Source: Pseudomonadota bacterium
GTDB taxonomy: Bacteria > Pseudomonadota > Gammaproteobacteria > UBA4575
NCBI GenBank assembly: GCA_039030355.1
Contig: JBCCEI010000002.1
Coordinates: 1-41,455 of the forward strand
Direction: 5' to 3'
Length of the DNA: 41,455 bases
The notes under the pieces were generated by a model. The model was given only the letters and a program-made list of their open reading frames with translations. It searched no databases and was not told the origin of the DNA. Below, piece after piece: positions 28,690 to 33,637 of the stretch. Numbering within the stretch: the first letter of the stretch is position 1; each line of letters opens with the position of its first letter. The position numbers and the translations under genes are program-made.

Positions 28690-29430
28690 ATGCCTAAATT
28701 ACTGATCAAAATTAACGCTCAAATCTTTATCTCATATTTTGTTACTGCTGCATTGATGTGTTTTCTATTTACAGTCTCCGCATCCTCTGTATTAGCAAAT
28801 ATGGTATTGAGTGAAGCAATTATCCATTTCGAACCAGGCAAACCACTACGCAAAGATATTGAAGTAGAAAATCCAAGTGCAGAGAACTTATACATCGAAA
28901 TTACACCTGCGATTGTAAATGAACCCGGTACACATCAAGAGCATCGTGTAGCAATTGTTGACCCACGCGAATCAGGACTACTAGTAACCCCTAATAAACT
29001 TGTAATTCCACCTGGTGGTAGAAAGCTAGTTCGTTTGGTATCCCTACAACCTTTAGGTGAAATGGAACGCGTATATCGAGTAACTTTTAAACCTGTTGTA
29101 GGCGATTTAGAGGCTGAACATATTGGCGTGAAAATATTAGTAGGTTATGAAGTATTGGTACTAATGCAACCAGCAGAACCGGATCCAAATTTAATTGCTA
29201 GCCGATCAGGAAACACGATTTCTTTCCAGAATAAAGGCAATACAAATGTTTTATTACGCGAAGGGAAACAATGTCCAGATGGGGTGGCATCCGACTCAGA
29301 GAAATGTGAACGCCTTGCAGGTAAGCGTTTATATCCTGGAAACAACTGGTCCGTGAACTTACCATTTAACAAAGCCGTTGATTACCAAATGAGTATAGGT
29401 ACGAAGAACTCAGTCAAAACATATAAGTAA
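28690..29430 (+). CDS. Periplasmic PapD-like pilus chaperone candidate (divergent)
   Basis: It starts at the internal ATG 28690, with AAGGA 11 nt upstream. It has a signal peptide ending SSVLA. The two-lobe beta pattern shows LLVTPNKLVIPPGGRKLVRLVSL, YRVTFKPV and VKILVGYEVLVLMQP, then a second lobe with ISFQNKGNTNVLL. The classical TR(V/I)I(Y/F) strand motif is not evident. Confidence 0.6.
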   Translation: MPKLLIKINAQIFISYFVTAALMCFLFTVSASSVLANMVLSEAIIHFEPGKPLRKDIEVENPSAENLYIEITPAIVNEPGTHQEHRVAIVDPRESGLLVTPNKLVIPPGGRKLVRLVSLQPLGEMERVYRVTFKPVVGDLEAEHIGVKILVGYEVLVLMQPAEPDPNLIASRSGNTISFQNKGNTNVLLREGKQCPDGVASDSEKCERLAGKRLYPGNNWSVNLPFNKAVDYQMSIGTKNSVKTYK

Positions 29431-29460
29431 TCCCCTTAGTCTATTAATCGAACATAGCTT

Positions 29461-31917
29461 ATGCAGAATAAACTGCACCGCTTTGTTAACTTTGCTAGTT
29501 TGTTTTTGCAGGCAGTATTTCTGCTATGCATAGCACTTTGCCCACAATTTCTTTTCGCCGAAGAAAAAATAAAAATTCGCGTTAAAGACACACCTCCTCC
29601 TGGGTTTGAGGATCTAGTTCAACCCCAGACGACGGAAGTTGATGTGATATATGGAGATGAAAAGTTAGGTACTACACTTGCTACGTTCACACCAGATAGT
29701 ATTGAATTATTCTCACCACAGGAGGTAGTCGAACTCATTCCACATTTATTAAATCCAGAAATTATCGCCCAAAATTTAACTGGGCAATTAAACACAAATG
29801 CAAATGCAGTATGTGTATCAGAGTTGCAGAGAAAATGCGGCATTATTGAGCCCAATATCGCAGGAGTAATTTTTGATGAGAGTCGATTTCATCTTCATGT
29901 TTTTGTGAATAAGCTTCAATTGCAGCCTCAAGGCATTGTCTCTAACAAATTTTTACCGAAAATTAAAACGCCTAAATTTTCTAGCACAAGTTCCTTCTCA
30001 AGCAGCTTCAGTGGAGAAGACGGAAATAATTCATATACCAGTGGCGCGAGCCATATTTTTTCTCATGGTCAGTCACGGCTACAAACGATATGGGATTACT
30101 CTGATACGCGTAATTTCAATTTAGAGGCTTTTTCCTTTAAAAATGATAATGCGGGTTCAGCTAAAGAACTTGGTTACTATGAATCAGATACACAATTTAG
30201 TTCCTTTACCAATACATTGGATATTGTCGGTGCCCGTATCTATGGATCTACACGTACACGAGCAGATTTAGACTACTCTCAAGCCACAGAAATATTTTTA
30301 TTCTTAAATTCTCGTAGTCAGGTTGAAGTATTTAGGGAAGAGAAACTCATTGATGGTGGAATATATGACACGGGGAATCAACAGCTAAATACTTTGCGTC
30401 TACCATCAGGTTCATACCCTATTACGCTTCGCATCACAGATTCAGCAGGAACGGTAAGAGAAGAAGAATACTTTTTTGTAAAAACTTCAATTCTGGCACC
30501 TCTTGACCAACCATTGCACTATTTTGAAGTTGGTTTACTAGAAAAAGATACATCAAATAATGACCTACCCAGTCTTTCAGATAGTGAACTTTTTCGCCTT
30601 GGAACTGCATACAGGCTAAGCAATAATTTTGGTGCATCGGCAGAACTATTACATTCAAAAGACACATCTATTTTGCAAGGAGGCGTCGCTTACTTTGGAT
30701 CTGGATATGTATTACAGAATAACACTATGTTTGGCGCTGATGGAGAGCGGGGAATTCAACTTTTGGGACAGTTCCGGTTTAAAGATATTTCGTTAAATAT
30801 GGATTATCGACAAATTGAATCTAACGTAGAAGAATTTGATGAAATAGAAGTTCGCATTCTTCCTGAAGATTTCAGCCAGGGAAATATCTCTGCCAGTATC
30901 CCTTTATCACGCGGTAATTTAATTGTAAGAACACAATATCGTGACAGAAAAGCTGAAGAAGCAAGTACATCATATGGATTAGATTATCGTTATCCTCTTT
31001 TTTATCGAAATCGATATTCTATTGAGGCCAATTTAAGTACATTTTACGAAGAAAGCGATTATAATTTTCAAGCAGGTTTACGTATTACAAAAACACAACC
31101 TGGTCAAAATTTTAGTGTCCGCCCAAGGTATTTGCTCACAAAAAATAATGACGATACCGATCAAGGGTTTGTATTGTTTGCGAACGCTAACAAAAGTATA
31201 GAAGACCCTTCCTATGGCGAATTATCTGTTGGTACTTTCTTGTCGGAAGAGTTAGAACGCTCCACGTTTGGCGTAAGAGGTGAAAATATATCTTCATTCG
31301 GAAGAATTGATACACAGTTTGAGCATGTTAATGATAATGAGCGTGGAAGCTATTTACGCTATAGAGGCAATCAAAATACAAATCTTTTAACCAACGATGG
31401 TCAAATTGCGTTTGGAGGCGAAAGAAATACAAATAGTGGAGTCATCCTTGACATCAAAGGTCAAAATAAAAATGAGCCGTTTGAAATATATGTTGATGGG
31501 CAACCTAAAGGTACGGCAAAAGTTGGTAAAAAAACCGTTTTAGCATTAGCTGCCTTTAAAACTTACAACATCTCTATACGATCAAATAGTGACGAACTAT
31601 TACATTTTGACGAAGGTATCAACAAAGTCACCTTATACCCTGGCAATGTAGAAACACTTGTTTACGTAGTAAACCCAATTACTGTTCTTATTACTCGAGT
31701 CAATTTAATCGACGGCACGCCTGCTTCTAGATTACGAATAGAAAATGCTATTGGCTATGCCGTTACAGATCAGGATGGATGGTTACAAGCAGAGATATCC
31801 GGAAATGACCCACTTAAATTAACAAAAAGCGGGAATTTAGCTTGTACCATTGAATTACCTGAGCTTGAGATAAAAAATGGTGTTGCGTTTATAGATGAGT
31901 TGATCTGCAAAAAATAA
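29461..31917 (+). CDS. Outer-membrane usher-like protein (818 aa, divergent)
   Basis: It has a signal peptide. The N-terminal domain reads VDVIYGDEKLG...C..(6)..C...VIFDESRFHLHVFV, similar in layout to usher N-terminal domains. A long beta-rich middle region follows. The C-terminal domain ends LACTIELPELEIKNGVAFIDELICKK with a Cys pair, as in usher C-terminal domains. It lies 30 nt after the chaperone gene. Confidence 0.6.
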   Translation: MQNKLHRFVNFASLFLQAVFLLCIALCPQFLFAEEKIKIRVKDTPPPGFEDLVQPQTTEVDVIYGDEKLGTTLATFTPDSIELFSPQEVVELIPHLLNPEIIAQNLTGQLNTNANAVCVSELQRKCGIIEPNIAGVIFDESRFHLHVFVNKLQLQPQGIVSNKFLPKIKTPKFSSTSSFSSSFSGEDGNNSYTSGASHIFSHGQSRLQTIWDYSDTRNFNLEAFSFKNDNAGSAKELGYYESDTQFSSFTNTLDIVGARIYGSTRTRADLDYSQATEIFLFLNSRSQVEVFREEKLIDGGIYDTGNQQLNTLRLPSGSYPITLRITDSAGTVREEEYFFVKTSILAPLDQPLHYFEVGLLEKDTSNNDLPSLSDSELFRLGTAYRLSNNFGASAELLHSKDTSILQGGVAYFGSGYVLQNNTMFGADGERGIQLLGQFRFKDISLNMDYRQIESNVEEFDEIEVRILPEDFSQGNISASIPLSRGNLIVRTQYRDRKAEEASTSYGLDYRYPLFYRNRYSIEANLSTFYEESDYNFQAGLRITKTQPGQNFSVRPRYLLTKNNDDTDQGFVLFANANKSIEDPSYGELSVGTFLSEELERSTFGVRGENISSFGRIDTQFEHVNDNERGSYLRYRGNQNTNLLTNDGQIAFGGERNTNSGVILDIKGQNKNEPFEIYVDGQPKGTAKVGKKTVLALAAFKTYNISIRSNSDELLHFDEGINKVTLYPGNVETLVYVVNPITVLITRVNLIDGTPASRLRIENAIGYAVTDQDGWLQAEISGNDPLKLTKSGNLACTIELPELEIKNGVAFIDELICKK

Positions 31918-33003: not shown

Positions 33004-33103
33004 CGATATGAAGCTTATTTTTCTTATCATTCTTAAGTTGTAAAGCGCCAACAGTAAATCACTGTCAGCGCTCATACAGTTTCTTGAAACGTTAAGCTTT
33101 AAC

Positions 33104-33637
33104 TTATCTAGGAGAAACTAGAATAGTTACAACGTCAGAGTAAGTACCTGCACCAACAACATCTAAGTTAGCAGCAGGAACTACAATATCAATTGAAGAC
33201 TGAGGTGTACCACCACAAGTTGGGGACGCAGTGTCTGCATTGTCAAATGTTGTGTTCACTTGACCAGATAGCATTGCTGCTGAACTGTTACCGTCGTTAT
33301 AACTTACGTTATAAACTACTAAACCTGATGGACCGTTAAGCTGAAATTCGTTCGCGCCGCCAGGGTTAGAACTCGTCATCGTTACATCATAGTTACCTGT
33401 AGGGTTATTTGTATATACACATGCAGTGCTGCTGCCTGTGAAATCATTTCCAGGAACGTGTGAACCAGTGATATCTTGTAAAGCAGTAATCTGAATTTGA
33501 TCTCCAACCGTTACATCGATATCAATATCACCTTGAGAGGTCCCACCCAAAGTACCTTGGGTTGCAGCAATTGCACTACCGCTAACGGCCATTGTGCCTG
33601 CAATAATTAATCCTTTAACTAATTTCTTCATTTCCAT
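33104..33637 (-). CDS. Secreted pilin-like subunit A (acidic; probable major subunit)
   Basis: AGGAA lies 8 nt upstream. The signal peptide ends SAIA. The mature protein starts ATQGTLGGTSQGDIDIDVTV and ends AGTYSDVVTILVSPR. It is the first gene of the minus-strand trio, behind a 300-bp non-coding region. Confidence 0.6.
   Translation of the reverse strand: MEMKKLVKGLIIAGTMAVSGSAIAATQGTLGGTSQGDIDIDVTVGDQIQITALQDITGSHVPGNDFTGSSTACVYTNNPTGNYDVTMTSSNPGGANEFQLNGPSGLVVYNVSYNDGNSSAAMLSGQVNTTFDNADTASPTCGGTPQSSIDIVVPAANLDVVGAGTYSDVVTILVSPR

Follow-up and report, generated by a model that had tools for sequence, protein, structure and literature searches.

A probable alternate-type chaperone–usher pilus locus with convergent subunit genes in an uncultured gammaproteobacterium

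We analysed a stretch of 41,455 nucleotides (nt) of DNA, referred to below as the window, from a Pseudomonadota bacterium of the gammaproteobacterial lineage UBA4575 (assembly GCA_039030355.1, contig JBCCEI010000002.1, positions 1 to 41,455 of the forward strand). The subject of this analysis is a five-gene locus within the window that resembles a chaperone–usher (CU) system for the assembly of surface fibres. On the forward strand, a chaperone gene is followed by an usher gene; on the reverse strand, three genes for small secreted proteins, which we call subA, subB and subC in their order of transcription, run towards the usher (Table 1). The usher stop codon ends at 31917 and the subC stop codon begins at 31922, leaving 4 nt between the converging genes, and a scan of open reading frames (ORFs) confirmed the coordinates of the five ORFs and their convergence as given in an initial annotation made from the sequence alone. 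That annotation had also assigned to the subunit genes an upstream region of about 300 bp, which measures 306 bp (33638–33943), and had described the three small genes as paralogous, which is borne out by pairwise identities of 26–33% in tblastn cross-matches. All five ORFs are intact, with 30–90% identity to their orthologues, and the GC content across the locus is unremarkable. When the sequences were read by eye, all five proteins were seen to begin with signal-peptide-like N termini. For the chaperone, the start at 28690 is favoured over that at 28636 by an AAGGA sequence 11 nt upstream and by orthologues called at 246–247 amino acids (aa); for subB, the start at 33030 is favoured because the resulting 200 aa are the length called in orthologues.

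The 818-aa protein had been taken for an outer-membrane usher on account of its layout, and both profile searches and modelling agree with this. A Pfam search of the window usher matched TcfC (PF16967) at residues 275–340 (E = 6.5e-17; 61.3 bits against a gathering cut-off of 29.4) and CooC_C (PF15976) at residues 725–817 (E = 6.3e-11; 42.6 bits against a cut-off of 29), two families that we take to be built on the ushers of alternate (alpha, class 5) systems. The family PF00577 was not matched by the window usher in this search, and precomputed domain annotations lack it in 70 of 71 usher homologues. The NCBIfam TcfC equivalog scored 48.6 against a cut-off of 1428, so far under the cut-off that the protein is not a TcfC orthologue. 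A tblastn search of 72,556 plasmids with the usher retrieved ushers of the alternate family only, including CblC (3e-11) and the CS19 usher CsdC (5e-5). In the same search, the C-terminal domain of EcpC matched usher residues 639–816 (28% identity, E = 3e-8), and a Sphingomonas protein annotated as ‘TcfC E-set like’ was found at 85% coverage and 25.7% identity.

An AlphaFold model of the usher, built on 40 homologues, reached a predicted local distance difference test (pLDDT) score of 86. It contains an N-terminal domain (residues 56–149), six long strands (173–262), a six-strand domain that we interpret as the plug (279–342) and that coincides with the TcfC match, eighteen further long strands (352–645) and two C-terminal beta domains (659–708 and 721–816). 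The usher is thereby predicted to be a 24-strand barrel with a plug between strands 6 and 7. PapC and FimD are 24-strand barrels with the plug inserted at this same place, and Foldseek aligned the model over its full length (about 840 columns) with FimD (3rfz, 2.5e-30) and PapC (7lhg, 2.3e-26). The Cys pairs that had been pointed out in the usher and in the small proteins are real: C118/C126 and C795/C816 of the usher are invariant across 40 homologues, and C73/C141 of the subunits are invariant in 69 relatives.

The chaperone had been described as a two-lobe PapD-type protein. Consistent with this description, a PDB sequence search aligned it with both domains of CfaA (chains 6k73, 4y2o and 4ncd, E = 1e-12; CfaA residues 20–189). 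EcpB was matched weakly in the same search (E = 0.16), and archaic chaperones were absent from the list of matches. The NCBIfam TcfA model matched at 1.9e-10, far under its equivalog cut-off, and no Pfam family, including PapD_N, matched the chaperone of the window. Its Sphingomonas relative does match PapD_N above the gathering cut-off (6.6e-7), which ties the chaperone family to the PapD superfamily. FGA chaperones are defined by a disulfide-flanked C2–D2′ insertion (C163/C172) and by four hydrophobic donor residues in the G1 strand; further features are a D1′ insertion, a short linker and R154 (Bao et al. 2014, PMC4133393). In the window chaperone, a Cys pair aligns with CfaA C163/C172, and the G1 strand carries alternating hydrophobic residues that end in a Tyr aligned with a CfaA Tyr. 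These positions, together with the Arg in a KLVRL strand and a GLLVxP motif, are at least 90% conserved in 22 orthologues, and a D1′-like segment aligns with the D1′ region of CfaA. At the position of CfaA R154, the HMMER alignment, which is unreliable there, places an Asn, with an Arg four positions on. The initial annotation had seen none of the classical hallmarks in any of the five proteins. This has to be revised for the usher, in which TcfC and CooC_C score above gathering, and for the chaperone, with its CfaA/FGA-type features.

Searches with subA, subB and subC returned no significant match in Pfam, NCBIfam or the PDB sequences. The close relatives of subA form 33 clusters. A profile built from subA homologues, subB and subC, with hits counted as 50%-identity clusters, retrieved at least 2,844 clusters at E ≤ 1e-3 and 1,787 at E ≤ 1e-10, and the ten clusters that we checked were unnamed or annotated as ‘hypothetical protein’. 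Judged from these searches, the subunits are a large pilin family without a curated model. The consensus of the family had no Pfam match at E ≤ 10, and hence none to SCPU; individual relatives matched SCPU in 2 of 15 subA homologues (0.015) and in 3 of 69 wider relatives (best 8.9e-5), and a single one of the 69 matched CblD, weakly (0.0017). Fimbrial_CS1 was not matched by the three window subunits (E ≤ 1), by the 15 homologues (E ≤ 10) or by the 69 relatives (E ≤ 0.01). A likeness of the subunits to DUF4402 (PF14352) had been suggested, and we dropped it after finding no match at these same thresholds in the same three sets, nor with the consensus at E ≤ 10. The best PDB profile match of the subunits, not significant at E = 0.14, was to the pilin domain of CsuE, with a common C-terminal AGTYxDTxTxxV motif. 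The C-terminal motif of subB reads G-x-Y-x-G-x-L-x-L-L-V-x-P, and the Cys pair is present in this subunit (alignment A2).

An AlphaFold model of subA (pLDDT 80) forms a beta sandwich over residues 48–176. Its top structural matches in Foldseek are nearly all CU pilins, headed by the CfaE pilin domain (8e-6), CfaB (1e-4), CsuE (2e-4) and CupE (3e-4), and followed by PapA and FimG. On the evidence of the model, the subunits belong by fold with the non-classical pilins, intermediate between the alpha and sigma classes, yet form a family of their own. Considering that the subunits carry a Cys pair and a CsuE-like C-terminal motif, AGTYxDxLTxxV, that the CsuE pilin domain is their best profile match in the PDB, albeit at E = 0.14, that SCPU is weakly matched by 2 of 15 and 3 of 69 relatives, and that the top fold matches of subA include CsuE and CupE, the locus might be read as an archaic (sigma-class, Csu/CupE-like) system instead of an alternate-type one. 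We think this very unlikely, because the machinery speaks against it throughout: TcfC and CooC_C are the sole significant Pfam matches of the usher, and PF00577 is absent from all but one of the 71 homologues; the chaperone matches CfaA, with no archaic chaperone in its PDB list; and the plasmid search yielded CblC, CsdC, EcpC and TcfC-like ushers only. Even on the subunit side, the family consensus lacks an SCPU match.

Mature subA and subB share a conserved N-terminal extension of about 22 residues, in which A-T-Q-G-x-x-G-x-T-S-x-G precedes a run of alternating hydrophobic residues. This run reads DIDIDVTV in subA, with I38, I40, V42 and V44 as the hydrophobic positions, and the subA model leaves the extension (residues 25–46) unplaced as a strand; the extension of subB is ATQGTFGPTSSGTIEIGIAV (alignment A2). 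In both subunits this segment looks like a donor strand. In subC, strand A (VIRIYGLQDF) comes directly after the signal peptide, and about 25 residues of subA and subB are missing (alignment A2). The extension is likewise absent from the last subunit gene of orthologous loci and from the second subunit of the Sphingomonas locus. A subunit of this kind could accept but not donate a strand, so that only the distal end of a fibre would be open to it. We took subA as the shaft because it is the first gene of the subunit operon. On this basis, subA is reasonably likely to be the major shaft subunit, with subB as an adaptor and subC as the distal tip or cap. As a separate observation, the second half of mature subC is strikingly Arg-rich (RRRPNGAQ...RARRGSGIRRPCGRP), and this stretch may bear on what the subC tip binds.

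Such a set of genes could also represent CU machinery with a product other than a pilus, namely a short fibrillum, a capsule-like polyadhesin in the style of Caf1 or Saf, or a surface-displayed oligomer. The tip is one small domain and not a two-domain adhesin, thin and flexible fibres are known among non-classical systems (Csu and CupE), and our data leave fibre length and helical packing untouched, all of which would fit a product of this sort. We nevertheless regard it as improbable, since three differentiated subunits, including one that lacks a donor strand, are the pattern of a tipped pilus, and since the rod-forming CfaB/CfaE family heads the list of fold matches.

Eleven of the 150 best profile matches are proteins of 300–330 aa with two pilin-like domains (P0056, P0064, P0070, P0125, P0147, P0149, P0153–P0155, P0178 and P0182). 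For 10 of the 11, the window subunit that best matches the first domain is subC. In all four that we read, the first domain lies directly after the signal peptide and has no extension, and a donor-strand-like linker, for example TVDIALTIPD, precedes the second domain. One such gene, at 8001–8984 of locus L027, stands in a co-directional order of subunit, subunit, two-domain protein, chaperone and usher. The two-domain relatives look like a fused cap and adaptor, and their sequences suggest that split and fused tips coexist in the subunit family.

In about 30 loci, which span Gammaproteobacteria, Legionella quinlivanii and a Sphingomonas plasmid, subunit genes adjoin genes for a chaperone and an usher of the TcfC type, in varied gene order. 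As the gene set recurs in about 30 independent loci, the locus of the window is not a chance assembly. The syntenic loci come only from metagenome-assembled genomes (MAGs) named ‘Gammaproteobacteria bacterium’, some of which are closed chromosomes of 2.4–2.8 Mb. The convergent layout is kept in L001–L013, L015–L019, L021–L022, L024 and L029, with usher identities as low as about 30%. Its junctions, tight in most of these loci, range from a 32-nt 3′ overlap to a 53-nt gap, with 87 nt in L029, and the 3′ ends of usher and subC overlap by 14–32 nt in several relatives (L011, L012, L013, L019, L022 and L023). Other arrangements are found as well: subunit, chaperone and usher are co-directional in L014 and L023; in L016 and L020 (Legionella quinlivanii), the tip gene shares a strand with the chaperone and usher genes, and two subunit genes are divergent; and the Sphingomonas order is subunit, cap, usher, chaperone. 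Conservation of the convergent layout among homologues, which had been raised with the initial annotation, thus holds within a clade of uncultured Gammaproteobacteria but not among wider relatives, whose co-directional or divergent orders make convergence a trait of the clade and not a defining one of the family.

The DNA upstream of both operons is conserved. When the window is compared with six other loci, the block of about 240 nt that precedes subA is 68–88% identical at the nt level. For these six, identity is only 31–43% (saturated) at 4-fold synonymous sites in the Gate gene next to it and 26–46% in the distal 92 nt of the subA spacer, and subA is down to 40% identity at the amino-acid level. 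Conservation of the upstream block despite saturated synonymous sites indicates purifying selection. The block is confined to this clade (L001–L013, L024–L026 and L087); a metagenome scan for more copies of the leader gave mostly chance matches, the pattern being too degenerate, and one new true copy, that in L087. Upstream of the chaperone, about 110 nt are conserved, with a near-unbroken run of invariant columns across nine loci. One motif is common to the two regions. Its pattern, CAYTTTAGCAAWTY, is matched perfectly at just two places in the 41-kb window, once before each operon and in the orientation of that operon, a count that is no independent test because the pattern was derived from those two sites; a copy with one mismatch lies at 39806–39819 on the reverse strand. 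Both sites fall in conserved alignment columns, and a similar GCnCTnTAnTCC element follows the motif at equal distance in both upstream regions. These features make a shared regulator acting on both regions a reasonable hypothesis.

The 240-nt block is a candidate promoter, operator or leader, and it had no Rfam match even at E ≤ 5. We also considered a structured RNA or riboswitch in the leader, and this proved unsupported: the 166-nt leader is no more stable than shuffled sequences (z = +0.78), RNAalifold predicted no pairs on an alignment of leaders (A7), and a better leader alignment gave small hairpins only, with the reverse strand folding at least as well as the forward one (-45.9 versus -36.7 kcal/mol). 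In L005 and L010, a CTTTAG/CTAAAG inverted repeat is disrupted with no compensating change, which makes a pair of DNA sites more likely than a helix. The sole RNA feature of the leader that appears to be supported is a small hairpin followed by a U-rich tract. RNAfold placed this hairpin in 15 of 15 leaders, with weak stems of -2.7 to -7.5 kcal/mol, and among them are 8 different stems in which two-sided changes keep the pairing (for example CCCAA/UUGGG, CUCAAG/CUUGAG, CCUAA/UUAGG and CCGAG/CUCGG). Possible roles of this hairpin are those of an attenuator, a stabiliser or a protein-binding site. Before the chaperone, a TTGGAA/TCTAAT pair, not listed by the automatic scan, is a plausible putative sigma-70 promoter. 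A sigma-54 promoter-like sequence at this place (TGGCAA..TGC) was rejected, as its spacing is one base under the consensus.

These upstream regions also bear on whether the two convergent units belong together. The units are separate in transcription and lie on opposite strands, and frameshifts are seen in relatives (the chaperone of L008, subC of L010 and the ushers of L016 and Sphingomonas), from which one could argue that they are functionally unrelated neighbours, or that the locus is decaying or non-functional. Against this, both gene groups are found together in about 30 loci despite several rearrangements, the five ORFs of the window are all intact, the upstream regions are conserved where synonymous sites are saturated, and one motif is common to both; we give this explanation hardly any credence. 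We hold it to be very probable that the locus is a functional CU pilus system of the alternate type. With respect to the junction itself, a terminator scan found a weak terminator-like hairpin on the forward strand inside the 3′ end of subC (31963–31982) and nothing else. Where convergent genes abut or overlap, termination of each operon would lie inside the other and give antisense transcripts overlapping at their 3′ ends, and the transcripts of the two units in the window probably overlap in this way.

Together, these data make it likely that the locus encodes a complete non-classical CU pilus of the alternate (alpha, CFA/I–Cbl–Ecp-like) lineage, split into two convergent transcription units. 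Building on the observed family and fold assignments, presence or absence of the extension, gene co-occurrence and upstream conservation, we infer donor-strand exchange, subunit order, fibre morphology, adhesive function and regulation. By analogy with homologous systems, all five proteins would be exported to the periplasm by Sec. The CfaA-like chaperone would then capture the subunits by inserting its G1 strand into the incomplete immunoglobulin (Ig) fold of each, and the usher would recruit the chaperone–subunit complexes and polymerise them by donor-strand exchange. subC would enter first, as a single-domain cap or adhesin at the distal end, subB would link it to the shaft, and subA would form the shaft. 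The two operons are probably co-regulated via their conserved upstream sequences, including the one shared motif.

Several points weigh against this interpretation. No characterised pilin matches the subunits significantly in sequence, whether they are searched as single sequences, as a family consensus or as profiles. The tip role of subC rests solely on the missing extension, and L029 has two extension-bearing subunits with no extension-less one nearby. The 4 nt between the stop codons leave no room for a terminator between the operons, a difficulty for explaining how both are expressed together. Finally, the source organism is known from metagenome assemblies alone. The initial annotation had proposed an uncharacterised or very poorly characterised branch of CU fibres. 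Its core reading, a CU fibre system of a little-studied branch whose subunit genes converge, is borne out, and none of the outcomes that it named as refuting was observed. By profiles and fold, the machinery falls in the known alternate lineage, so that the locus is less exotic than proposed and the surprise is moderate.

A wider reading, which we offer as speculative and consider rather doubtful, is that loci of this kind form a large unannotated third branch of non-classical CU systems. Such a branch would combine alpha-type machinery with its own pilin family with sigma-like sequence traits. In the clade of the window, the pilin operon would in addition be under the control of a new, highly conserved 240-nt element and of convergent units that abut or overlap at their 3′ ends. 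The split tips of the branch, consisting of a single-domain cap and an adaptor pilin (as in the window and in Sphingomonas), and the fused tips, the 300–330-aa two-domain proteins, would preserve steps towards CfaE-like two-domain adhesins. To our knowledge, work on alternate-type CU pili has been confined almost entirely to pathogens, enteric ones and Burkholderia; here, alternate machinery with an unnamed pilin family is widespread in environmental Alpha- and Gammaproteobacteria. A profile for the subunit family would turn ‘hypothetical protein’ annotations into pilus subunits, and split and fused tips in one family offer a testable route to the origin of two-domain tip adhesins. The conserved upstream block and the abutting convergent operons make the coordination of structural and assembly genes directly testable. 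The current understanding of the CU pathway is not overturned by this locus.

Table 1 Features of the locus and of related loci (window positions unless a locus is named)
Feature	Position	Strand	Remarks
Chaperone gene	ORF 28636-29430, probable start ATG 28690	+	246 aa from 28690
Usher gene	29461-31917	+	818 aa
subC gene	31922-32395	-	157 aa
subB gene	32428-33030 (ORF open to 33075)	-	~200 aa from probable start 33030
subA gene	33104-33637	-	177 aa; heads the subunit operon
Conserved non-coding block, ~240 nt	33638-33878	-	upstream of subA
Small hairpin and U-rich tract	33661-33686	-	~25 nt upstream of the subA ribosome-binding site; then AAGAUUUUU
Motif CACTTTAGCAAATC	33825-33838	-	upstream of subA; common to the chaperone promoter region
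Motif CATTTTAGCAATTT	28582-28595	+	upstream of the chaperone
Sigma-70-like pair	TTGGAA 28599-28604, 18-nt spacer, TCTAAT 28623-28628	+	read from the sequence
Fourth small gene, L015	9947-10402		
Fourth small gene, L017	9961-10416		
Fourth small gene, L018	9958-10431		
Fourth small gene, L021	9967-10437		

The related loci gave some further observations. Four of them have a fourth small gene (151–157 aa, with an ATQGS...-type extension) between the genes for cap and usher, which BLAST searches with the window subunits had missed. The Sphingomonas locus (L150) lies at 7586–11863 of the Sphingomonas daechungensis KACC 18115 plasmid NZ_CP060781.1 and represents the same system in a cultured alphaproteobacterium. 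It consists of an extension-bearing subunit, an extension-less subunit, an usher annotated in two pieces and a chaperone, with GGDEF and EAL genes nearby, and could serve as an experimental model. Among the MAG loci, the genes for the L008 chaperone (12276–13231), L010 subC (9269–9717) and the L016 usher (9498–11965) appear frameshifted or split, which could reflect assembly errors or real decay.

The genes flanking the locus in the window are housekeeping genes, encoding CreD, a cytochrome c, a CopD-like protein, Rpe, a HAD phosphatase, TrpE, a Gate-domain membrane protein, NhaA and a thioredoxin-like protein. In line with the initial annotation, no regulator, recombinase or mobile-element gene was found among them, and the whole window contains no tRNA gene and no Rfam match. 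creD (26862–28388) adjoins the chaperone and is absent or a remnant in the syntenic loci L005, L010, L011 and L013; in loci without an intact creD, the pilus locus still lies between the cytochrome c gene and a gene pair encoding a 104-aa protein and the Gate-domain protein. In the window, the 104-aa protein is encoded at 33944–34258 on the forward strand, divergent from subA and 26 nt upstream of the Gate-domain gene. It is a predicted membrane protein with no Pfam match, and its gene is syntenic in L001–L012. Two ORFs of about 167 aa, on opposite strands and overlapping almost entirely, occupy positions 79–598 at the start of the window, and the ORF at 723–2366 (547 aa) encodes threonine dehydratase (IlvA). 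The matches of this IlvA are likewise gammaproteobacterial MAGs, and the nearest with a narrower assignment belongs to the Ectothiorhodospiraceae (66%).

No known pilus family with this gene order matches all five proteins, and our literature searches on DUF4402 with chaperone–usher systems, on Legionella alternate chaperones and on the Pfam accessions found no description of this system. The classical families PF00419, PapD_N/C and PF00577 are matched by no protein of the locus, and classical pilins and ushers appear as weaker structural matches only. AfaD and DraD of the Afa/Dr fibrils are single-domain Ig-like caps that lack a donor strand and accept the strand of the next subunit, the same role as that proposed for subC; they belong to a classical (FGL) system and have no sequence relationship to subC, so the likeness is a functional analogy only. 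The archaic systems Csu of Acinetobacter and CupE of Pseudomonas resemble the locus in having several small subunits with a Cys pair, a similar C-terminal motif, fold matches and marginal SCPU matches, and the Csu gene order is csuA/B-A-B ... E. They differ in that the usher and chaperone here belong to another sequence family, with no PF00577 and no PapD_N, and in that the CsuE tip has two domains.

The E. coli common pilus (ECP, EcpRABCDE) represents the other branch of the alternate family, and is related to the locus through the match to the EcpC C-terminal domain and the weak match to EcpB. EcpB has a disulfide flanking its C2–D2 loop, and EcpB-like and CfaA-like chaperones have been grouped together as alternative chaperones (Pakharukova et al. 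2015, PMC4654587); we call the pilus non-classical in the sense of that paper. The locus has no EcpA-like or EcpD-like subunits, its chaperone is much nearer to CfaA, and its gene order is unlike that of ECP. With the class 5 systems CFA/I (CfaABCE), CS1 (CooBACD), CS19, Tcf and Cbl (Burkholderia cable pili), the locus shares an usher with TcfC and CooC_C, with CblC and CsdC among its tblastn matches; a CfaA-like chaperone with a Cys pair aligned with that flanking the C2–D2′ loop and with a four-residue hydrophobic G1 motif; a subA model closest to the CfaE pilin domain and CfaB; and a putative tip gene that is the last subunit gene. In contrast to these systems, its subunits match neither Fimbrial_CS1 nor CblD and carry a conserved disulfide pair, and its tip is a single 134-aa domain where CfaE, CooD and CblD are two-domain adhesins of about 360 aa. 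Its three-gene subunit operon converges on the chaperone and usher genes, whereas class 5 systems have one co-directional operon of chaperone, major subunit, usher and minor subunit; no Rns/CfaD-type regulator lies nearby; and the host is an uncultured environmental gammaproteobacterium and not an enteric pathogen. By sequence, then, the locus departs from the alternate (alpha, FGA) systems in its major subunit, tip adhesin and operon order, and belongs with them in its usher and probably in its chaperone.

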